Shown piece after piece: positions 13,350 to 43,718 of a stretch of DNA of 60,520 bases. The stretch is from a virus (taxonomy: Duplodnaviria > Caudoviricetes), in the IMG/VR virus record IMGVR_UViG_3300042507_002862, positions 1 to 60,520 of that record. The stretch is one strand, 5' to 3'. Below the pieces are notes generated by a model, which did no database searches, was not told the DNA's origin, and saw nothing but the letters and a program-made list of their open reading frames with translations. The position numbers and the translations under genes were made by a program. How positions within the stretch are numbered: the first letter of the stretch is position 1; the number at the start of each line of letters is the position of its first letter.

Positions 13350-13940
13350 ATGCTCAGACTGCGCGACTACCAAACGGAAGTGATCGAATCGCTGCTGGAC
13401 GCAATGCGCCGCGGTGTGAAGTCCACGCTCGTTGGGCTTTTCACCGGCGCCGGCAAAACCGTGATCTTCACTGCACTCGCGGATCGCATCGAAGGACGCA
13501 CGCTGATCATCGCCCCGATGCGTGAGCTTGTCTGGCAGGCAGCTGACAAGGTTCGTCAGGTCACAGACTCTGACCCCGACATAGAGATGGCCGATTACGT
13601 TGCCGAGCGCGACTACTGGCCGGCAAAGGTGGTGGTCGCATCGAAGCAGACGCTGCTGTCCAGCCGCCAAGGCGAGAAGCGATACCGCAGATTCAATGGG
13701 TTCTCTCTCGTCATTGTGGACGAGGCGCACATGCAGTGCAGCGAGCCTGTCATTGAGATGTTGAAGTTCTTCCAAGACCAAGGAGCAATGGTCGCGGGTT
13801 TCACGGCAACGCCGTTTCGGATGGACGGCAAGCCCATGCTAAGGAGTGACGCATGCAGTTCTATCAAGAGTCAGTCTGTAACTACGACCTCCAGTGGGCC
13901 ATCGCCAACGGCTGGGCAGTGCCGCCTGTTTGCAAGCTGA
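13350..13940 (+). CDS. SF2 (DEAH/ResIII-like) helicase, N-terminal ATPase domain
   Basis: LRDYQ, TGAGKT, VDEAH and TATP motifs; similarity ends at about 13840. Confidence 0.88.
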   Translation: MLRLRDYQTEVIESLLDAMRRGVKSTLVGLFTGAGKTVIFTALADRIEGRTLIIAPMRELVWQAADKVRQVTDSDPDIEMADYVAERDYWPAKVVVASKQTLLSSRQGEKRYRRFNGFSLVIVDEAHMQCSEPVIEMLKFFQDQGAMVAGFTATPFRMDGKPMLRSDACSSIKSQSVTTTSSGPSPTAGQCRLFAS

Positions 13941-14914
13941 GCCGGGTGGAGTCGCTGGATCTAAGCAAGGTCAACATTGTCGGCGGCGACTTCAACCAGA
14001 CGAAGCTCGCCGCGGAACTGAACAAGGAAAGCAACTTGCACCGCGCCTGCATGATCACCGCTGAAGAGATGGAGGGGCAGACCGTCCTCTTCACCGGCAG
14101 CGTGTTCGCAGCCAAGGGTGCGACTGAGTACCTGACCCGCAACTACGGAATCCCAGCCGTCTGTGTCTGGGGCACCATGCCTGACGAGGAGAGAGCCGAT
14201 GCACTTGCAGCCTTTAAATCCCGACAGGCCAGGGTCATTGTCAACTGTGCCCTTGTTGCCGTTGGCTTCGACTTCCCACCGACCGCAACCCTCATCCTTG
14301 CCAGACCAACCCGCTCCCGATCCTTCTGGTTGCAGTGCGTTGGCCGAGCCACTCGTCCTCTCCCCGGAGTTGTTGACGGGGACGGCCTTCATACCGCTGC
14401 CGACAGAATTGCTGCAATCGCTCGCTCCGATAAGCCTCATTTCAAAATTGTTGACTGCACAGCAGGAACTCTGGATCACACAGTCATCACAAGTGTGGAC
14501 ATGTTCTGCACCTCGCCCGACGAGGAAGTCAAAGAAGCGGTGCGTAAAGCAGCGGCGCAGTCTCCACTCTCGCAGGAAGAGATAGACGCCTTGGCTGCGG
14601 CCGAGGCGCAGAAGAAGGCGGAGAAGATCGCCAGCGCCAAGCTCATCGAAGAGATGCGCCGCAACACGCAGGGGCGGGGCGAGGGCCGCATCCACGGCAA
14701 GGATGTGGACATCACCTGGAAGGGCGTCCGCTCAGTGGGCACATACAACAACCCGCTCAAGGGAAAGTACGCCGGCTACAAGCTGTCGGAGTTGCCCGAT
14801 CACTACGTTCAATGGGCGGCTGGTAACGACAAGCTGAATGGCTGGATCAAGTCAATGTTCAGGAAGGAACTGGGGAGGAGACATGGCAGAGAAGAACGAT
14901 TTGTTAGTCGATGA
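13853..14914 (+). CDS. SF2 helicase, C-terminal domain, in a separate frame
   Basis: VGFDFP, ARPTRS and QCVGRATR motifs; C-terminal KGKY..LSELPDHYVQW module; AAGGAG RBS. Confidence 0.88.
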   Translation: MQFYQESVCNYDLQWAIANGWAVPPVCKLSRVESLDLSKVNIVGGDFNQTKLAAELNKESNLHRACMITAEEMEGQTVLFTGSVFAAKGATEYLTRNYGIPAVCVWGTMPDEERADALAAFKSRQARVIVNCALVAVGFDFPPTATLILARPTRSRSFWLQCVGRATRPLPGVVDGDGLHTAADRIAAIARSDKPHFKIVDCTAGTLDHTVITSVDMFCTSPDEEVKEAVRKAAAQSPLSQEEIDALAAAEAQKKAEKIASAKLIEEMRRNTQGRGEGRIHGKDVDITWKGVRSVGTYNNPLKGKYAGYKLSELPDHYVQWAAGNDKLNGWIKSMFRKELGRRHGREERFVSR

Positions 14915-17278: not shown

Positions 17279-17809
17279 ATGACCAAGCGAGACAGGCAAA
17301 TGAGGGAGTACGCAGCAGAGGGCGACATCGTCGCCCGGCTGCGGGAAGCCTCGCACTTCGCACTGATGGACGCCGCCCGGGAGTGGGTGCGTGAAGCCGC
17401 CGACGAGATCGAACGTCTGCGAGAGGGGCGGGTACTGGACGGCGAATCCATTGGCATATTGATTGGCGAGTGCCAAGACCTGCATGACCGCTGCATCAAC
17501 GGCGAGCCGACCGAAGAGTGGATCCCGGTGACAGAGCAGCTGCCGCCAGAGCCCGGGCGCTACGTGGCACGGCCGGACGGTGGCATGTGGTACTACTGCG
17601 ACTTCGACGGGGAATTCCTGGTTGAGAAGGGCGCGGCCCCCATCACCCACTGGATGCCCGACACCCCGCTCAGCCTAGACATGCGGCTGCAGGCACTGCC
17701 AGACCGGCTGGCTCAGGAGGTGAGAAAAGAATTGGCCTCAACTCGGTGGCGAGCCAAGGTTCAAACGAATATCATCGCCCGACTGAAGGCTGCATTGGAG
17801 AGGCGATGA
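17279..17809 (+). CDS. DUF551-like phage protein
   Basis: EAADEIERLR, WIPVTEQLP and ITHWMP motifs. Confidence 0.7.
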   Translation: MTKRDRQMREYAAEGDIVARLREASHFALMDAAREWVREAADEIERLREGRVLDGESIGILIGECQDLHDRCINGEPTEEWIPVTEQLPPEPGRYVARPDGGMWYYCDFDGEFLVEKGAAPITHWMPDTPLSLDMRLQALPDRLAQEVRKELASTRWRAKVQTNIIARLKAALERR

Positions 17810-17952
17810 GCGGGACACTGATCATAATGACAGGGGTGATTTACTTGTATGTGTCCGTTGAGCAAGGGCTTCACGGAAACGTAGGCATGTCAATCACTTA
17901 CGCCGCATACGCCGCTGCCAATGTTGGACTCTGGATGATGGCCAGTAAATAA
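17806..17952 (+). CDS. Small two-TM membrane protein
   Basis: 48 aa, hydrophobic, ATGA coupling. Confidence 0.65.
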   Translation: MSGTLIIMTGVIYLYVSVEQGLHGNVGMSITYAAYAAANVGLWMMASK

Positions 17953-17956
17953 CTCT

Positions 17957-18304
17957 CGCAACACATAGCCCCCGGATGGGCACACGGTATGAAGATCGGC
18001 CCCCCGCCGAAGGTTAGCTGTGCAAGGCTGACCGCTGCCATGGAATGGCGAAGAGGGGGCAACCCCGCTGAGACGCGCCGACAGGCAATCCAGCGGTTCG
18101 ATGTGTTTCTCTGCGGTAAAGGTGCGATGTCTTCCGACTCCGCGTCCACCGAGGCACAAGCCAATCGCAGCGCAGTGGCAGGGTTGAACTAAGGGAACTG
18201 CGTTATCAAAGGTCACACTTAGGGTAGAGGTCTGTGGCTCCAACCGTAAACAGGCTTTTGCTGACTCCTTGGAATTTTCCTTTTAGGATTTTCCAGGGAG
18301 TCGG
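17957..18304 (+). ncRNA. Candidate structured non-coding RNA of unknown family
   Basis: Gap in a dense operon filled by nested hairpins and a long-range closing stem, AACACAT(17960-66)/ATGTGTT(18101-07). Confidence 0.5.
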
Positions 18305-18340
18305 TCCAGTTCACCGCACCGAAACAGACATGGGGGTTTT

Positions 18341-18619
18341 ATGGATAAGCGTAGTCTGCCGAATCATAAGGGCTTCTTGGTCCGGTGTAACAGTCTTGGA
18401 GCCGTGAATGGCAAGTCCCATCTGTGGACCGGAGAGGATACGGTGTGCCGCATGTGGGCTACTAGCCTTGTGCAAAGCCAGAAGACCTACAAGGTCACAG
18501 CTGAACCGATGACTCAGCTTTGTGCCCTTTGTCACCCAGAGCGATACGACATGGAATTGTGGATCCGAGAGTCGGTTGCGCTGGCAGATGCACAGCCGTA
18601 TACTCTGCGGAATGAATAA
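18341..18619 (+). CDS. Hypothetical protein with a possible Zn site (H..C..CxxC)
   Basis: 92 aa; SHLW...TVC...LCALC. Confidence 0.6.
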   Translation: MDKRSLPNHKGFLVRCNSLGAVNGKSHLWTGEDTVCRMWATSLVQSQKTYKVTAEPMTQLCALCHPERYDMELWIRESVALADAQPYTLRNE

Positions 18620-19010
18620 GGCTGAGCAAAAGGAATTGCTGGCGTGGGTTGAGTTGCACCGCAGCTGTGCTGTGTGCTGGTGGCCTGAGTCTGATGGTCG
18701 GCGCGACCTGGAGGTGCATCACATCATCGGTGGTGCCGGTCGCAAGCATGATGTCAGGAATTACCTGCGCCTCTGCTCCCGATGTCACGGGGTGTATCAC
18801 AGCGGAAAGATTTTCAGTGGACAGGCCGACCTGAACAAAGCTACACTTCTAGGCGTTAAGCAAGAGTGCGACCCGGATAACTATGACCCGGTGTTTCTTG
18901 CATCGCTCAAGCACAAGAAACATTTGGGCTACGACCCGGAACCGCTGCCGGATTACTACCTCCAAGAACGCCAGCGAAACCTCACCTCATGGACGGCGCG
19001 ATCACCATGA
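18612..19010 (+). CDS. HNH-type nuclease
   Basis: CAVC..EVHHI..N.LRLCSRCH..YH. Confidence 0.8.
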   Translation: MNKAEQKELLAWVELHRSCAVCWWPESDGRRDLEVHHIIGGAGRKHDVRNYLRLCSRCHGVYHSGKIFSGQADLNKATLLGVKQECDPDNYDPVFLASLKHKKHLGYDPEPLPDYYLQERQRNLTSWTARSP

Positions 19011-20210: not shown

Positions 20211-20544
20211 GTTCCTGCTGGCCAACCAGGCTGCGCTCCTGCAGGTGGTTGCCATTGCCAAGTCTTGGCGCAAAGACCTGCCCTACGTGGAGCAATGGGC
20301 GCTGGTCGATTCGATTGCCCGCGTGCTGATCCCGATCCTGGAAGCGCAGGCCGTGTCGGTTAAGGCGCTAACGAAGCACCGCTTCCATGATGAGGACTTT
20401 GAAGAGACTGACTACGAAGCCCTGGCCTTCAGCACTGGCGTGGAGTTTGCCGCTCTCGGCATCGACTGGAAGTTGCTGATCGATGTGATCATCCCCATTA
20501 TTATTTCGATCCTCAAGGCACTTGCCGCTGGCAAAGAAGAGTGA
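20188..20544 (+). CDS. Membrane protein with a C-terminal TM helix
   Basis: 118 aa; WKLLIDVIIPIIISILKALA. Confidence 0.7.
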   Translation: MLNVKVIKFLLANQAALLQVVAIAKSWRKDLPYVEQWALVDSIARVLIPILEAQAVSVKALTKHRFHDEDFEETDYEALAFSTGVEFAALGIDWKLLIDVIIPIIISILKALAAGKEE

Positions 20545-21482
20545 GCGGGTTCGTCCATCTCCCACCCTACCGGGTCAACCTAGACGCCCCTCGCGCTCTC
20601 CAGCATGGTGTTGACTGGGGTGTCTGTTCCTACGGGATCCCCTCTCTGTGGCAGAAGTCACAGGGCGAAGGCGTGACGGTGGCGGTGATCGACAGTGGCG
20701 TGGCCAAGCACCCTGCCCTGGACGATGCGGTGGTTGACTACCGCAACTTCACCAGCGACTCCGATGCCCATGACACGCTCGGTCATGGCACGCATGTGAG
20801 TGGGATCATCGCCGCCCGCAGCGGGCTGGCCAAAGGGATTGCCCCCGCCTCCAAGATCCTGTCGCTGAAGGTCTTGGGGCACAGCGGCATGGGAAGCAAC
20901 GAGTGGGTGGCGCAGGCCGTGCGTCATGCCGTCGAAGCCAAGGCGCAGATCATCTCCATGTCCTTGGGGTCTAGCCGCACGGACGATGGGGTGCATACCG
21001 CCCTGCGAGAAGCGTACGCCGCCGGCATTGTGGTGGTCTGTGCTGCAGGAAACGACGGTGGCTCGGTCAACTACCCTGCTGCCTACCAAGAAACGGTGGC
21101 CGTTGGTGCGGTCGATAGCCACGGCAATGCCTGTGAGTTCTCCAGCCGCGGGAAGGAGATCGCGGTCGCAGCACCAGGGCAGGACATCACCAGCACATGG
21201 CTGGCCAATGGCTATGCCACCGTGAGCGGTACAAGCATGGCCGCGCCGTTCGTCTCCGGTGTGCTGGCCTTGTACATCAGCGCACAGCACAAGCTGGATC
21301 GCACCGTCAACCATGCCGATGTGATGAAGGCACTGTCCACCACCTGCAAGGACGTTGGCGAGCAAGGCCATGACCACGTCTACGGCTGGGGCTTGGTCGA
21401 TCCGCACAAGCTGCTGAACTTCACCATGCAGGCGAACATCGGCGGCGTCACCATCTTCATCCCCGGAGCCAAGATCCTATGA
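20541..21482 (+). CDS. Subtilisin-like serine protease (S8)
   Basis: Complete triad VAVIDSG / GHGTHVSG / GTSMAAP and oxyanion motif AAGN; no signal peptide or I9 propeptide. Confidence 0.95.
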   Translation: MSGFVHLPPYRVNLDAPRALQHGVDWGVCSYGIPSLWQKSQGEGVTVAVIDSGVAKHPALDDAVVDYRNFTSDSDAHDTLGHGTHVSGIIAARSGLAKGIAPASKILSLKVLGHSGMGSNEWVAQAVRHAVEAKAQIISMSLGSSRTDDGVHTALREAYAAGIVVVCAAGNDGGSVNYPAAYQETVAVGAVDSHGNACEFSSRGKEIAVAAPGQDITSTWLANGYATVSGTSMAAPFVSGVLALYISAQHKLDRTVNHADVMKALSTTCKDVGEQGHDHVYGWGLVDPHKLLNFTMQANIGGVTIFIPGAKIL

Positions 21483-21691: not shown

Positions 21692-22077
21692 AGCATCTGC
21701 CCGTGATCATAGCGGTGGTGGTAGCGGCGCTGGCCTTTGTGCCCGCCGCCAAGAAAGCGGACGGCCCGGTCGCAGCTGCGATGGCAAGTGCCAGCCGATC
21801 TGACCGCGCCCACCTGAAGGGAATCTACCTGTCGCTGGCCGATGTCACTGAGAAGGACAACGGCAAACTCATCAGCACCGTAGGCATGTGGCGACAGCTG
21901 CATATCAACACGCTGAAGCTGGCCGCTGCAGACATGCGTGGCAAGTACGCTGGGCTGGACGTTGCCGTTGAGAAGGTGATGGCCGAGAAGTTCCCGATGG
22001 ATGATGTACCACTTAGCACCTCGCTAGTGAACCAGATCGCAGCTGCATGCCGGGAGGTCGCGAAGCAGAGTGAGTGA
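21688..22077 (+). CDS. Exported or membrane-anchored helical protein
   Basis: 129 aa; MKHLPVIIAVVVAALAFVPA signal sequence. Confidence 0.7.
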   Translation: MKHLPVIIAVVVAALAFVPAAKKADGPVAAAMASASRSDRAHLKGIYLSLADVTEKDNGKLISTVGMWRQLHINTLKLAAADMRGKYAGLDVAVEKVMAEKFPMDDVPLSTSLVNQIAAACREVAKQSE

Positions 22078-24205
22078 CTTCGTACCGCTCAAAGCCTACG
22101 ACGATGGCATGCAGGGCTGGATCAACAGCGCCCGCGAGCGCGTCTTATGGCAGGAGTCCCAGCCCCGGCCGATCTACTCTGAGCCGAATAGCATGGGGTC
22201 CGGCGACGGCAAGCGTGCCCTGCTCTGGCAGTACGTTCGCAAGCTAGACCCACTGTCGTTCACGGAAGTTCAGACGGTAGGAGATTGCTTCGTTGCGGGC
22301 ACCTTGGTTCGCATGGGCGACGGGACCGAAAAGCCCATCGAAGCTATCTCAACAGGCGATGAGGTGGCGTCCCCATTTGGTGGCATTCGCAGGGTACTGT
22401 CTGTCTTTAGCAAGCCGTACCAAGGCACCGTATGCAGCCTTACCGCGGAAGGCTGTATGGATTCCGTGACGGCAACCGAAGACCACCGCTTTGTGTCGTT
22501 TGTTAACAAACAAGAGTTCATCTGGGAGTCTGCTGGTGGCCTGTCTGTTAGTGACCGCATGTTCGTACCGCGCACAGAAATTACCAGAGAAGCGCCGCAT
22601 GTGTTTGACCTATCTGGCGAGCATGGCTGCGCCTCCGATCCGAACGAATTACCCGACGCGCCTACACACAACAGCCGCAGGCTGAAAGCTGATGACGGCA
22701 TGGTGCGCGTCACAAATGGAAAGTATCAGTGCCGCCGACACGTTGAGCTAGACGCAGAAGTGGCATGGCTTATTGGTCTATGGCTGGCGGAAGGGTCTAC
22801 CGACAAAAACAAGAACGGCGAACCAATATCGTTGACGCTCAACTTGGCAAGCGACGAAATGCTGATAGCCAGCAAGGCCAAGAGCATTGTTCAGTCTCGT
22901 TTCGGAACGCCTGCCAAGATCGTAACCATTCCATCAAAGCCGTCTTGCCTGTTTGTTAACATCGCAAGCACGCCGCTGGCTCGCTTAGTGTACCGCATCT
23001 GCGGAAACGGGAACGTGTACAACAAGCGAGTGCCAAAAGAGATACTGACTTCCTGCCGGTCGGTGCGCATGGCATGTCTGCGGGGATGGATGGAAGGCGA
23101 CGGTTGCGTGATGAACAAGCCACGCTCTGGTCGGCCTCAGTACAAAATGTGCAAGGCAAGCGGCGTCTCTGTATGCCGCCCGCTTGTGCGAGACATGAAA
23201 TACCTGGCGGTTTCCTGCGGCGTGCGATGCACGGACACGGCACGCAAGGCGCGCGGGCGTTCACGCGCGGCATCAGAGCTTCACTTCTACGGAGAAGGCG
23301 CGGTGGCTGTTATGCCGTCGCGCTTAAAGACACCAGCGGCAACACGCGGTTCGACTGTGTGGCGAGTGGCTGGTGGGTTTGCTCCGCGAGTCAAATCCAA
23401 TGTCCGCTCGCAGTTTGCAGGCACCGTGTACTGCATAGAAGTTGAAGAGGATCACGCCTTCGTTGCTAACGGATACGCCGTTCACAACTGTGTCAGCCAC
23501 TCCAGTCGGAACGCCCGGGATTGCACGCGCGCGGTGCAGGTATTGCTAGAGAACAGGCCAGAGTCTTTCGTTAAGCGCGGCGCAACGGAGCCCACCTACG
23601 GGGCGCGTGGCCACAGCGGCGAGGGCATGGTCCCCGCCAGGGCGGCGACGTTTGAAAGGGATGTGGGTTTCTGCATCCGGCAGAAGTACGAACCAGTTGA
23701 TCTCTCCAAGTACAACGGCAACATCGGCACCAACTGGGGATCGTCCGGCGTGCCCAACGCAGTTGCAGACATCTGCCGCCAGCACAAGGTGGGGATCATT
23801 CGACAGATCACCACCGTGCGCGATGCGATGGACGCACTGGCCAGTGGGTACGGCCTTCACTCAGGTCAGTACGCCAAGTGGGCTGGCTCACCCAACTCAC
23901 AGAACATCCATCCGCGACAGGCGGGCGGCTGGTCGCACGCAATGGCCACAGTCGGAATGGACGACACCAAAGAGTTCTGGCCGTTCACTGTATTTTTTAT
24001 CGCCAATTCTTGGGGCGGTTGGAACCAGCCAGTGAAAGACTGGCCGTCCTCCTACCCAGAACAAGTACCAGGGATGATCGTCACCAAGGCAGATGACTGG
24101 GCCGTGTGCGTCACCGATGGTGACTGCTGGGCCTACGGAAACGTCGATGGATTCCCCCCTCAGAAGCTGCCCGACTACGGCGCTATCGGACTACTGCAGA
24201 CATGA
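22070..24205 (+). CDS. Papain-like cysteine peptidase (C1-like) precursor containing an intein
   Basis: The spliced extein reads Q-T-V-G-D-C-V-S (Gln plus catalytic Cys), SHAM..VG (His) and ANSWG (Asn); 310 aa after splicing. Confidence 0.85.
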   Translation: MSDFVPLKAYDDGMQGWINSARERVLWQESQPRPIYSEPNSMGSGDGKRALLWQYVRKLDPLSFTEVQTVGDCFVAGTLVRMGDGTEKPIEAISTGDEVASPFGGIRRVLSVFSKPYQGTVCSLTAEGCMDSVTATEDHRFVSFVNKQEFIWESAGGLSVSDRMFVPRTEITREAPHVFDLSGEHGCASDPNELPDAPTHNSRRLKADDGMVRVTNGKYQCRRHVELDAEVAWLIGLWLAEGSTDKNKNGEPISLTLNLASDEMLIASKAKSIVQSRFGTPAKIVTIPSKPSCLFVNIASTPLARLVYRICGNGNVYNKRVPKEILTSCRSVRMACLRGWMEGDGCVMNKPRSGRPQYKMCKASGVSVCRPLVRDMKYLAVSCGVRCTDTARKARGRSRAASELHFYGEGAVAVMPSRLKTPAATRGSTVWRVAGGFAPRVKSNVRSQFAGTVYCIEVEEDHAFVANGYAVHNCVSHSSRNARDCTRAVQVLLENRPESFVKRGATEPTYGARGHSGEGMVPARAATFERDVGFCIRQKYEPVDLSKYNGNIGTNWGSSGVPNAVADICRQHKVGIIRQITTVRDAMDALASGYGLHSGQYAKWAGSPNSQNIHPRQAGGWSHAMATVGMDDTKEFWPFTVFFIANSWGGWNQPVKDWPSSYPEQVPGMIVTKADDWAVCVTDGDCWAYGNVDGFPPQKLPDYGAIGLLQT
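22286..23488 (+). mobile_element. Intein with LAGLIDADG homing endonuclease (401 aa)
   Basis: Block A CFVAGT, block B TEDHRF, WLIGLWLAEGS and LRGWMEGDG motifs, block F VYCIEVEEDHAF, block G VHN/C. Confidence 0.95.
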
Positions 24206-24895: not shown

Positions 24896-25112
24896 AACTG
24901 AACTGTGGATGCTCGGCATATCGGTTGCCGCAGCCGTCATCCCGTGGGCTTTCAGCCTGCATGCCAAGGTCGCGGTCATCGCCAATAGCGTGGAGAGTTT
25001 GCCCCGCATGCTGGACGAACTGCGACAGACGATAGAGGAACATGAGGTTCGTCTCAATCAGCATGACAAAAAGATTGAAGCTCTCGGCCAAGCGTCAACG
25101 ACTGGTCGTTGA
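24885..25112 (+). CDS. N-terminal TM plus coiled-coil protein (holin/spanin-like architecture)
   Basis: 75 aa; LWMLGISVAAAVIPWAF followed by a heptad pattern. Confidence 0.55.
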   Translation: MSPETELWMLGISVAAAVIPWAFSLHAKVAVIANSVESLPRMLDELRQTIEEHEVRLNQHDKKIEALGQASTTGR

Positions 25113-25629
25113 GTACATGCCGCTAGCAGAAATGCTGGCCAAGTATTTCCTGCAGAACCGCCCGCACTGGCAGCGAGGCGTGCTAGTAGCAGACCTGCAG
25201 AGCGAAGGCTACCTCGCCATCTGCAAAGCGGCTCGCACCTATGATCCCAAGCGACTGCCCTACCCAAAGGCGTACTTCGCACGGGCCTGCCTCAATGCGA
25301 TGTACAAGCAGATCAAGAAGTTGAGCCGTCAGCCTGGCGACATACGCATCACGCTGGAAGAAGCGGCCGACCTGCTGCCAGAGTTCGACCATTTGGATCA
25401 CATCAGACTGGCGATAGCTGATCTCCCAGAGTGGGAGCAAGAGCTAGCTACCGACAGGTTCATCCACGGCAAGACACTCAGAGCGCTGGCTGAGTCGCAT
25501 GAAATTTCGCTTCGCGCTGCTGCTCGGCGGTCCACTGCTCTGGCGAAAGTCTTGGCGGGATCCTTGGGTATCCAGCTACCGCAGCCCGGTGCAGATTCCT
25601 TGTGTCAGTCAGGCCATAGTAGCCCCTGA
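25063..25629 (+). CDS. Phage-encoded sigma70-family factor (region 2 plus region 4; FliA/SigF-like)
   Basis: LVVEYMPLA..., DLQSEGYLAICKAARTYDP; region-4 HTH LPEWEQEL...GKTLRALAE. Confidence 0.85.
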   Translation: MTKRLKLSAKRQRLVVEYMPLAEMLAKYFLQNRPHWQRGVLVADLQSEGYLAICKAARTYDPKRLPYPKAYFARACLNAMYKQIKKLSRQPGDIRITLEEAADLLPEFDHLDHIRLAIADLPEWEQELATDRFIHGKTLRALAESHEISLRAAARRSTALAKVLAGSLGIQLPQPGADSLCQSGHSSP

Positions 25630-42032: not shown

Positions 42033-43718
42033 ATGCGCAAGCACCCACAGATCCCCCCACCGCCGCCACCTGACGAGCCGGCGGTCCAAGGCATCACGCA
42101 GCACGCTCTCAACCAGCTGCGCGATGTTCAGATCGAACTGGCTGAGCGCCGGATCGAAGCCCTGCGTCTGTATTCCCCCATGCCCAAGCAGGAGGAGTTC
42201 CACAAGTGCATGGCGAGCGAACGCCTGCTAATCGGAGGCAACAGAAGCGGCAAGAGTGCCGCAAGTTTCGTAGAGGACGCACGCGCGGCTACCGGGCAAG
42301 ACCCGTACGGGAAATATCCGAAGGAGGGCGGGAACCTAGTGATCATCGGAAGGAACTGGCCCCACGTAGGATTAGTAATAGTACCGATGCTGTTCCGTGC
42401 CGGGGCGTTCAAAATGATCAAGGACGAGACAACGAATCAGTGGAGGGCCTTTAAGCCCGGGGTGGACGATCCCTCAAAAGCCAAACCAGCGCCGCCTCTC
42501 ATCCCGCCTCGCATGATCAAAGAGATGAGTTGGGTGCTGAAGAACGCCGGCTACCTCAACAAGGCAGAGCTTACAAACGGCTGGACTATCAACTGCTTCT
42601 CCTCAGAAGGCGAACCACCGCAGGGCTTTCAGGCCGACTTAGTTCACATTGATGAGGATATTAATAATGAACGGTGGGTCGGTGAAATGCAGGCGAGACT
42701 TGCCGACCGTAAAGGCCGGTTTGTCTGGAGTGCGATGCCACATAGTAAGAACGATGCGTTGCTGGGGCTGTGTGAACGTGCGGACAAGGCCGAAGAGGAA
42801 GGGCAAGAGAACCCGATTATCAAGAAGTTCACCCTGCGCTTCTTGGATAACGCCCACATCGACCAAGAGGAAAAGAAGAAAAACATTGAGCGGTGGTCGG
42901 CCTTGGGAATGGACGAGCTTCGCATGCGAGCGGAGGGTGAGTTCACCACGGAAAGCACGCTCATGTACCCGTCGTTCAATCCTGCAGTGCATGTTCTGCG
43001 GCGCGAGGATCTACCCGGTGGTGTGGTGCCCGCTGAATGGACGCGGTATGTGGCGATCGACCCTGGCCATACAGTCCTCGCGTGCGTCTTCGGTGCCGTG
43101 CCGCCGGACGAGAAGTTCCTGCTGATCTACGACGAACTGTACATCCGCCAAGCCAATGCCCTCATCTTTGGTGACCAGTTCGCCCAGAAGGCCGATGGAC
43201 AGAACTACCGGACTTTCATCATCGACATGCACGGCGGCATGCTCAGAGACTTGGGGTCAGGCCGTCTTCCCCATGAACTGTACTCCGAGGAACTCCGCAA
43301 GCGCGGCATCAAGTCGCAGATGAGCGGGTTCGGATTCATTCCAGGCTCCGATGACATCCCGGCCCGCACGGCGCTCGTCCGGCAGATGCTGCACATCCGC
43401 GGCGACGGGTCCACCAAGCTGAAGTTCTTGGAGGGCGCCTGTCCGAATCTCATGCGCGAGATCCGCCGCTACCGCAAGAAGACCACTAGCGTCAACGGTC
43501 AGGTCTATGTGACCGATGAGCCGCAGAGCCGCGGCGAGGTTCATGCCATCCAATCGGTGGAGTACCTCTGCGCGTACGAACCAAAATACCACGCACCCCC
43601 CAAGACCTATGGTCCCGATCCTTGGTGGGTGAAGTACCTCGCGGAGAAACGCCGCAGGCAGCAGGGGTCCGAAGACAACTGCGTGATTCTCGGGCCAATG
43701 GGGAGTAGACGAAGATGA
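42033..43718 (+). CDS. terL: Terminase large subunit
   Basis: PKQ (Q motif), GGNRSGKS (Walker A), VHIDED (Walker B), AIDPG nuclease motif. Confidence 0.93.
   Translation: MRKHPQIPPPPPPDEPAVQGITQHALNQLRDVQIELAERRIEALRLYSPMPKQEEFHKCMASERLLIGGNRSGKSAASFVEDARAATGQDPYGKYPKEGGNLVIIGRNWPHVGLVIVPMLFRAGAFKMIKDETTNQWRAFKPGVDDPSKAKPAPPLIPPRMIKEMSWVLKNAGYLNKAELTNGWTINCFSSEGEPPQGFQADLVHIDEDINNERWVGEMQARLADRKGRFVWSAMPHSKNDALLGLCERADKAEEEGQENPIIKKFTLRFLDNAHIDQEEKKKNIERWSALGMDELRMRAEGEFTTESTLMYPSFNPAVHVLRREDLPGGVVPAEWTRYVAIDPGHTVLACVFGAVPPDEKFLLIYDELYIRQANALIFGDQFAQKADGQNYRTFIIDMHGGMLRDLGSGRLPHELYSEELRKRGIKSQMSGFGFIPGSDDIPARTALVRQMLHIRGDGSTKLKFLEGACPNLMREIRRYRKKTTSVNGQVYVTDEPQSRGEVHAIQSVEYLCAYEPKYHAPPKTYGPDPWWVKYLAEKRRRQQGSEDNCVILGPMGSRRR

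Follow-up and report, generated by a model that had tools for sequence, protein, structure and literature searches.

What defines HEARO elements is a large structured RNA immediately ahead of an HNH gene and in its orientation; IscB, the HEARO-associated protein, has about 400-500 amino acids and carries both RuvC and HNH domains. Homing endonuclease genes of the T4 family, such as I-TevI, have regulatory leader hairpins and nested late or middle promoters. RNAs of the GOLLD and ROOL type are associated with tRNA clusters. Earlier orphan classes of large complex RNAs proved to be ribozymes, guides or cages, and to our knowledge, large RNAs with complex pseudoknotted folds are rare. In the available excerpt of bioRxiv 10.1101/2024.12.08.627333, GOLLD, ROOL and similar RNAs are large ornate orphan RNAs of phages and metagenomes. 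The available excerpt of PMC10690425 covers both the translational operator of T4 gene 32, which is a 5' pseudoknot bound by the gene product, and the DNAVirus_X set, which consists of structured RNA candidates of 29-151 nt that were predicted from IMG/VR.

The DNA that we analysed, hereafter the window, is a complete IMG/VR virus record of 60,520 bp with about 60% GC. The sequencing runs that contain this DNA are lake-water metagenomes; a search of public runs found 24 with it, and RNA is recorded for none of them. A blastn comparison to 50,697 phage records gave no match. This is a phage group without a cultured relative. (A candidate for the terminase large subunit, at 42033-43718, has a single match among those phage records, at 24% identity.) On the + strand, a gap of 388 nt at 17953-18340 separates the stop of a 48-codon ORF (17806-17952) from the ATG of a 92-codon ORF (at 18341). 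We are confident that this gap encodes a member of a new, uncatalogued family of structured RNAs. The members of this family, from uncultured tailed phages that live in freshwater, are large pseudoknotted RNAs of about 300-390 nt that are encoded on the + strand, and the best explanation of the data is that the RNA is transcribed from this strand together with a DNA-metabolism operon. A preliminary description of the window had proposed a densely structured segment in this gap as a novel phage RNA on the + strand. The segment is indeed structured and non-coding, it matches no Rfam family, and folding, covariation and ORF decay all agree with that proposal, but part of the fold that was drawn for it is wrong.

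Like HEARO (the omega RNA of IscB, RF02033), this is a pseudoknotted RNA of a few hundred nucleotides that directly precedes an HNH gene in the same orientation. Unlike HEARO, it does not match the RF02033 covariance model, either in the window or in 10 diverged relatives; the neighboring protein has 132 amino acids and contains PF01844 only, instead of the RuvC and HNH domains of IscB; the RNA is single-copy in the 60.5-kb genome and syntenic, while HEARO is a multi-copy mobile element; and many homologous HNH genes are found without this RNA. Leaders of the I-TevI type also place RNA structure just ahead of phage nuclease genes, and in two relatives of the window there is a promoter-like site at the 3' edge of the structure. 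However, our RNA is five to ten times larger than those leaders, multi-domain and pseudoknotted; occlusion of the ribosome site is unsupported here; and the window has no nested promoter-like site. The fold resembles those of GOLLD and ROOL, as far as the excerpt describes them, in being large, ornate, conserved, carried by phages and found in lake metagenomes, but it does not match their Rfam models, is shorter, and is tied to a nuclease cassette. As in the excerpt's account of the T4 gene 32 operator, a pseudoknotted RNA lies just upstream of a DNA-metabolism gene, and the protein binding to single-stranded sites beside the start codon that we propose below would be a second similarity; the differences are that this RNA is much larger, that its downstream gene varies by lineage, and that its binding protein is only putative. 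With the DNAVirus_X set, as excerpted, the RNA shares its source (IMG/VR) and the use of covariation in intergenic regions of viral contigs. The described lengths of those candidates set it apart, so at most a fragment of it could be among them. A group I intron with a homing endonuclease was also considered and rejected: there is no Rfam match, the upstream ORF has its own stop, and the downstream ORF has its own start.

In Rfam searches, the whole window had no match at the gathering score, and at E <= 10 the region 17700-18600 had only three matches (E 6.5-7.2), all of them with unrelated small-RNA families of eukaryotes or archaea. Ten diverged relatives had no match at E <= 1 in Rfam 15. 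ARAGORN found no tRNA or tmRNA genes in the window.

The gap stands out within its operon. If + strand ORFs of at least 60 amino acids are called mechanically, then 17953-17988 and 18193-18340 are the only sizeable regions without an ORF from 10.5 to 26 kb, and the next largest is 43 nt. Both of these regions are in the same gap, where they flank a spurious ORF (17989-18192), so the preliminary description was right to call this the largest gap in a tightly packed operon. Upstream of the RNA are genes for an exonuclease, Erf and a helicase; downstream are the gene for the 132-amino-acid HNH nuclease (18612..19010; PF01844, E 7.7e-8), which is the constant downstream neighbor as judged by synteny, a RusA-like gene and a subtilase. 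All of the flanking genes are on the + strand. The subtilase gene (S8 family, 20541-21482) and a sigma-factor-like gene (25042-25629) belong to the same + strand operon. We also note that a 711-amino-acid ORF at 22070-24205 has intein-type domains (LAGLIDADG_3, Intein_splicing and Hint), and that the helicase (phrog_16) is spread over two overlapping ORFs, 13350-13940 and 13853-14914, which cover successive segments of the profile (272-428 and 428-704). A frameshift, a gene split in two or a misassembly could each explain this helicase arrangement (13350-14914).

We identified relatives of the RNA in several ways. The 234-amino-acid ORF upstream led to four related viral contigs, whose DNA is 85-88% identical over 17.3-20 kb, and the set was enlarged by pattern scans and by using an alignment of the HNH protein as a query. 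A scan with a 17-mer returned nine stretches (five relatives and four chance matches); a 16-mer returned 15, with six relatives; and a scan of genome contigs returned 13, with one relative. Scanning for the 5' motif was more productive, as 19 of 21 stretches were relatives and the other two (L202 and L209) were chance matches. The metagenome scan gave at least three relatives among the 118 matches listed. Altogether, the RNA was found on 30 further IMG/VR contigs, on at least two metagenome contigs, and on one contig that was binned into a metagenome-assembled genome (MAG). The last is a 7.4-kb contig (L147) with the RNA, HNH and RusA-like locus, whose MAG is labelled Myxococcales; this is probably a binning artefact rather than a clue to the host. 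Our main alignment (A6) has 28 sequences from about 16 lineages. When 47 loci were searched with covariance model R1, it matched only these 28 known members, and it had no match in 13 HNH loci without the RNA. Another contig, L009, looked by eye like a low-GC relative, and a covariance model of the central domain gave no match to it.

The RNA is better conserved than the neighboring genes: in five relatives, the identity of the RNA core is 93, 93, 87, 83 and 83%, as compared to 68-93% for the flanking genes. The gap is non-coding. Two frames are open across it in the window, namely the 67-codon ORF at 17989-18192 and an antisense ORF of 117 codons, and neither has a match in PHROGs or Pfam. 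The preliminary description had suggested looking for a coding signal in the first of these; in seven of the eight aligned rows it has lost its ATG or has in-frame stops or frameshifts (it is intact only in the remaining one), and the antisense ORF is broken in seven of the eight rows as well.

Folding and covariation both support a structured RNA. The comparison with shuffled sequence, which had been chosen beforehand as a check on the proposed RNA, shows that the + strand folds better than shuffles (minimum free energy of -149.2 kcal/mol; z = -2.22; none of 100 shuffles was as good). For the - strand, z = -0.81 and 21 of 100 shuffles were as good. RNAalifold on the eight closest sequences gives 92 pairs, of which 17 have compensatory changes. 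Across the alignment, P2 and the pseudoknot (described below) have 93.9% of cells paired versus 83.4% in shuffles and a covariation score of 0.259 versus 0.087, with none of 500 shuffles matching the observed values; slid controls are only 30-55% paired. In the alignment made with covariance model R1, H3b and H4 are 79.7% paired versus 65.4% in shuffles, with a covariation score of 0.383 versus 0.145 (again none of 500), and these figures undercount the true pairing because the covariance-model alignment mis-registers H4 in window-type rows. We also used an alignment-free test that compares cognate to non-cognate duplex energies across 17-19 lineages. For P2, H3b, H4 and the pseudoknot, none of 2,000 permutations matched the observed values, and for H5, seven of 2,000 did.

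The evidence favours the + strand as the RNA strand, as the preliminary description had argued from G-U pairs. Cells with G-U outnumber those with A-C by 91 to 8 in the close clade (alignment A1) and by 26 to 8 for H3b and H4 (alignment A9), and they are tied at 6 to 6 in A6. The RNAalifold energy is -110.4 for the + strand and -83.1 for the - strand. The minimum free energy of single sequences is lower on the + strand in only six of 19 members, which is not decisive for the strand.

In the window, the whole structured RNA runs on the + strand from the P1 hairpin to the end of the second direct repeat (DR2), 17964..18331, or about 370 nt, as judged from alignments A1 and A6 and from extraction lengths; the homologues are 294-385 nt as extracted, with a few flanking bases each. 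Compensatory changes back P1, H1, Hb, H2, H3b, H4, H5, H6, P2 and the pseudoknot. Seven of the eleven helices in the preliminary description are supported by the 28 homologues (those that we call P1, H1, Hb, H2, H4, H5 and H6), and the other four are unsupported.

The RNA begins with P1 (17968..17981), a GCCC/GGGC hairpin with a 6-nt loop, which starts at the upstream gene's stop codon or a few bases from it. By our own reading of alignment A5, P1 covaries (GCCA/TGGC, GGCA/TGCC, GGC/GCC and GAC/GTC); MAFFT puts the P1 columns of distant rows out of register. It is followed by a 5' junction, ACGG-N-CUGAAGAUCG (17984..17998), whose columns are near-invariant in A5 and A6, and then by the long-range helix P2 (17999..18060), in which GCCCCC at 17999-18004 pairs with GGGGGC at 18055-18060. 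All 28 rows can form P2, each with five or six of the six pairs, and it covaries to GCUCGC/GCGAGC in L181 and L199 and to GCCAA/UUGGC in L177 and L180. P2 takes the place of two hairpins that had been proposed. One of these was GGG-GCAA-CCC, whose G-run pairs with the C-run at 17999-18004 instead; the other was TCGGC/GCCGA, in which 14 of 24 rows have C-A or C-T at the second pair (our own reading of A5). P2 encloses two variable hairpins, H1 (GGTTAGC/GCTGACC, 18012-18033) and Hb (GCCAT/ATGGC, 18037-18049), and the hairpins within P2 are exchanged between lineages.

Just 3' of P2 is H2 (18065..18096), a CCGCUG/CAGCGG hairpin with a conserved inner GCC-tetraloop-GGC. It has compensatory changes at two pairs; other lineages have CGGAUG/CAUCCG or CUGGAG/CUCCAG, and L159, L162 and L183 either lack the hairpin or have something else in its place. 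Contigs from four lake-water DNA runs contain sequence variants that are consistent with H1 and H2. The preliminary description enclosed all of these hairpins in a closing stem, ACACAT/ATGTGT. In L002 and L008 this stem is disrupted, and distant members lack an equivalent of it. RNAalifold suggested another closing helix, between the 5' end and the Shine-Dalgarno region, which competes with the well-supported P1 and is broken in two of eight rows.

The central domain is closed, in window-type members, by H3 (18111..18170), in which CUGCGGU at 18111-18117 pairs with AUCGCAG at 18164-18170. H3 is invariant in the window clade, changes a G-U pair to G-C in L143, and is absent as such in type-2 members. 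The 3' strand of H3 had originally been assigned to a TGCGAT/ATCGCA hairpin; L004 changes only one side of that hairpin, and ATCGCAG pairs with CTGCGGT at 18111-18117. Within the domain, H3b (18121..18150) has a conserved loop with the consensus GCUGACGACUCCA (13 nt, at 18129-18141 in the window), and its stem has changes on both sides at five of six pairs, or at four of six in the independent subset of type-2 members. The loop also provides the 5' strand of the pseudoknot (CCGA, 18134..18137, which pairs with 18301-18304): the first bases of YGAC in the H3b loop pair with GUCR directly 3' of H6. At pair 18135/18303, we found CG in 21 rows, UA in four, AU in two and UG in one; at pair 18134/18304, there are six CG, six GC, two AU and 14 unpaired. 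The pseudoknot pairs are kept in L174 and L206, where the 5' strand of H6 cannot pair with those bases.

H4 (18171..18202), a CGCAGU/ACUGCG hairpin, covaries to CGCCGU/ACGGCG, ACGGGG/CCCCGU, CGGAG/CUCCG and ACGCUG/CAGCG(A) in other members. An A-rich junction (GUUAUCAAAGGUCA, 18203..18216) follows, with three adenines (A242, A245 and A246 of A6) that are invariant across the 28 rows. The next hairpin, H5 (18226..18257; GUCUGU/ACAGGC), includes the first direct repeat (DR1, 18230-18257). Its loop has a GGCUCC motif, which is kept in most members, and the repeat core, and a scan for partners found the 5' strand of H5 with repeat R1 (z = -6.2; none of 400 controls). RNAalifold pairs GGCUCC with GGAGUCG in type-2 members; we set this pairing aside, as it gives no evidence either way because both strands are invariant. 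The last hairpin, H6 (18261..18304), is long, with a conserved CUCC/GGAG and an upper stem that varies in length and sequence. Beyond it are the second direct repeat (DR2, 18304..18331) and a GGGGG Shine-Dalgarno-like run with the ATG of the 92-amino-acid ORF (18332..18343), a start that is conserved in the window clade.

The two direct repeats that flank H6 are present in all 19 representatives. They are about 28 nt long in the window, and across the family they align over 25-43 nt, are about two-thirds to four-fifths identical, and are 46-74 nt apart. Each lineage has its own version of the repeat core, which the two copies in a genome share: the alignment score is 30.1 for cognate copies and 18.2 for non-cognate copies, and none of 1,000 permutations matched this, so the two repeats evolve in concert. 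Because DR1 folds into H5, the core of repeat R1 is largely the H5 loop. For DR2, we found no partner within the RNA in a scan of all 16-column windows (the best z was -2.6 among about 160 tests). Specific pairings of the repeats were tried and rejected as well: repeat R2 with the 5' strand of H5 (X:R2; 1869 of 2000), the 5' junction with R1 (J5:R1; 560 of 2000) or with R2 (J5:R2; 713 of 2000), and a second H5-like hairpin in DR2 (X':R2; 1490 of 2000). Neither the 60.5-kb genome nor the surroundings of the RNA in 15 relatives contain a further copy of the repeat core in direct or complementary form. We infer from these patterns that the repeats may be two identical single-stranded sites for one lineage-specific partner.

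The RNA directly precedes a nuclease cassette, which comprises an optional inserted ORF, the gene for the 132-amino-acid HNH protein, and the RusA-like gene. Among 41 loci that were fetched via the HNH protein, the RNA is upstream of the HNH gene and on its strand in 26 and is absent from 15, with L188 and L195 judged by motifs only. So, the HNH gene does not need the RNA. The locus that was found via the RNA's 5' motif alone (L210) has the HNH gene one ORF downstream. The RNA is always zero or one gene upstream of the HNH gene, with constant orientation and position. It abuts the HNH start in L183, L181 and L199, lies about 50 nt before the HNH gene in L159 and L162, and abuts the 92-amino-acid ORF in the window clade and in L196. 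The interval is thus either empty (in those first five loci) or occupied by one of five unrelated ORFs, with 92 amino acids (window 18341-18619, the first gene 3' of the RNA), 150 (L169:2062-2514, with a weak Endonuclease_7 match, E 1.7e-4, that is below the Pfam cut-off), 170 (L178:2002-2514), 173 (L166:1983-2504) or 187 (L210:10840-11403). This interval looks like a hot spot for gene insertion. The gene upstream of the RNA varies as well, and in several lineages its stop codon is in or beside P1. One contig of run X10 joins 18096 to 18613 and skips 516 nt; the shorter side of the joint has only 30 nt. This is a weak hint of a variant without the 3' half of the RNA and the 92-amino-acid ORF.

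We tentatively propose, as the most likely role, that the RNA controls the nuclease cassette in cis, as a leader or operator. It would do so by limiting or timing the expression of the downstream genes. On this proposal, the RNA carries two identical single-stranded copies of a lineage-specific sequence, with R1 displayed in the H5 loop and R2 at the 3' edge, where in several lineages it would run into the ribosome-binding site or the start codon of the next gene. One putative lineage-specific trans factor would bind both R1 and R2, and occupancy of R2 could block initiation. The synteny with nuclease genes (26 of 41 loci, and L210) and the twin repeats argue for a leader. Against it, the pairings that might hide the ribosome site or switch the fold (X:R2, J5:R1, J5:R2 and X':R2) are unsupported; the gene after the RNA differs by lineage, being one of five unrelated ORFs or none; and the known leader hairpins of nuclease genes are far simpler than a pseudoknotted RNA of about 370 nt. 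A riboswitch or attenuator is not indicated, as the alternative pairings are unsupported and there is no terminator-like site on the + strand after the RNA. As to direct occlusion of the ribosome site, we found no partner for the segment adjacent to the start, and the RNAalifold helix between the 5' end and the Shine-Dalgarno run conflicts with P1 and is broken in two of eight rows.

The main rival to the leader is a stand-alone ncRNA that acts in trans or is a scaffold for a ribonucleoprotein, and which would be either cut out of the operon transcript or transcribed from a promoter of its own. We regard this as possible but somewhat doubtful. Its function would then be independent of the next gene, and the twin repeats would be docking sites for a partner. 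In L170 and L178, there are promoter-like sites directly 5' of the RNA (in L170, TTGACT-16-TATTAT, 10/12, with TG) and second sites just 3' of it, so a separate RNA gene fits as well as a leader does. However, no such site precedes the RNA in L166, L177, L183, L210 or the gap of the window; where the upstream stop codon is in or beside P1, as in several lineages, there is no room for a promoter; and neither the window nor the six scanned relatives have a terminator-like site on the same (+) strand after the RNA. Nested promoter-like sites 3' of the RNA are limited to two of the six scanned relatives (L170 and L178). The varying genes on both sides, the exchange of peripheral hairpins around a conserved core (as in other large ncRNAs), and a sequence conservation above that of the neighboring proteins would all suit a stand-alone RNA, but its constant orientation and position relative to the HNH gene would not be expected.

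We also noticed that an unusual second hexamer, TACACT, is common to the promoter-like sites at 18818-18847 of the window, L170:2006-2033 and L178:1938-1965. The site in the window is within the HNH gene and the other two are just after the RNA. TACACT may represent the promoter type of this phage group.

Another explanation is that the RNA is the partner of the small HNH nuclease, in a ribonucleoprotein like that of IscB and the omega RNA, with the repeat core as the specificity element. A large structured RNA encoded immediately before an HNH gene and in its orientation, a short lineage-specific element that is single-stranded, and the synteny of the two in 26 of 41 loci and L210 are what such a partnership would predict. 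We nevertheless consider it unlikely: neither HEARO nor any other Rfam model matches; the 132-amino-acid protein has an HNH domain only, with no RuvC-type domain found, and the next gene is RusA-like; each genome has one copy of the RNA; 15 of the 41 HNH homologues occur without it; and the genome and the vicinity of the RNA in 15 relatives contain no complementary or additional copy of the repeat core. It is similarly improbable that the RNA and the HNH protein form a novel RNA-dependent nuclease system, an independently arisen, minimal, phage-borne analogue of IscB and the omega RNA, in which the RNA would be the scaffold and the repeats would set recognition.

There is also a small chance that the 3' part acts as DNA, with iteron-like repeats around an inverted repeat that form a replication origin or a packaging or recombination site. 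As with iterons, the two repeats are identical in any one genome and vary from one genome to the next, and the element is part of the replication and recombination module, surrounded by genes for an exonuclease, Erf, a helicase and a RusA-like protein. But an iteron-type origin is a poor match: there are only two repeats, with no other copies in the genome, and the region lacks an AT-rich stretch (GC content 0.56). The RNA elements that overlap the repeats (H5, H6 and the pseudoknot) covary, and their G-U pairs are confined to one strand; the 5' 260 nt would be left unexplained. The preliminary description had offered a structured replication origin as its alternative; the excess of G-U over A-C on one strand disfavours it.

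That the gap is a degenerate coding region or a GC-rich spacer with chance structure is hardly credible, even though two ORFs are open in the window and the folding z-score is only -2.2, since both ORFs are intact in only one of eight aligned rows and lack PHROGs or Pfam matches, the covariation tests are significant, and conservation exceeds that of real genes nearby.

With about 30 members, the family has enough diversity for structure determination, and it has a fixed place ahead of nuclease genes. The repeats that change jointly are a concrete handle for finding the RNA's partner. If the RNA gates the expression of the nucleases, then it would represent a new and much more elaborate form of control of phage DNA-metabolism genes. 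If instead it works with the HNH protein, then it would be part of a new RNA-protein nuclease system.
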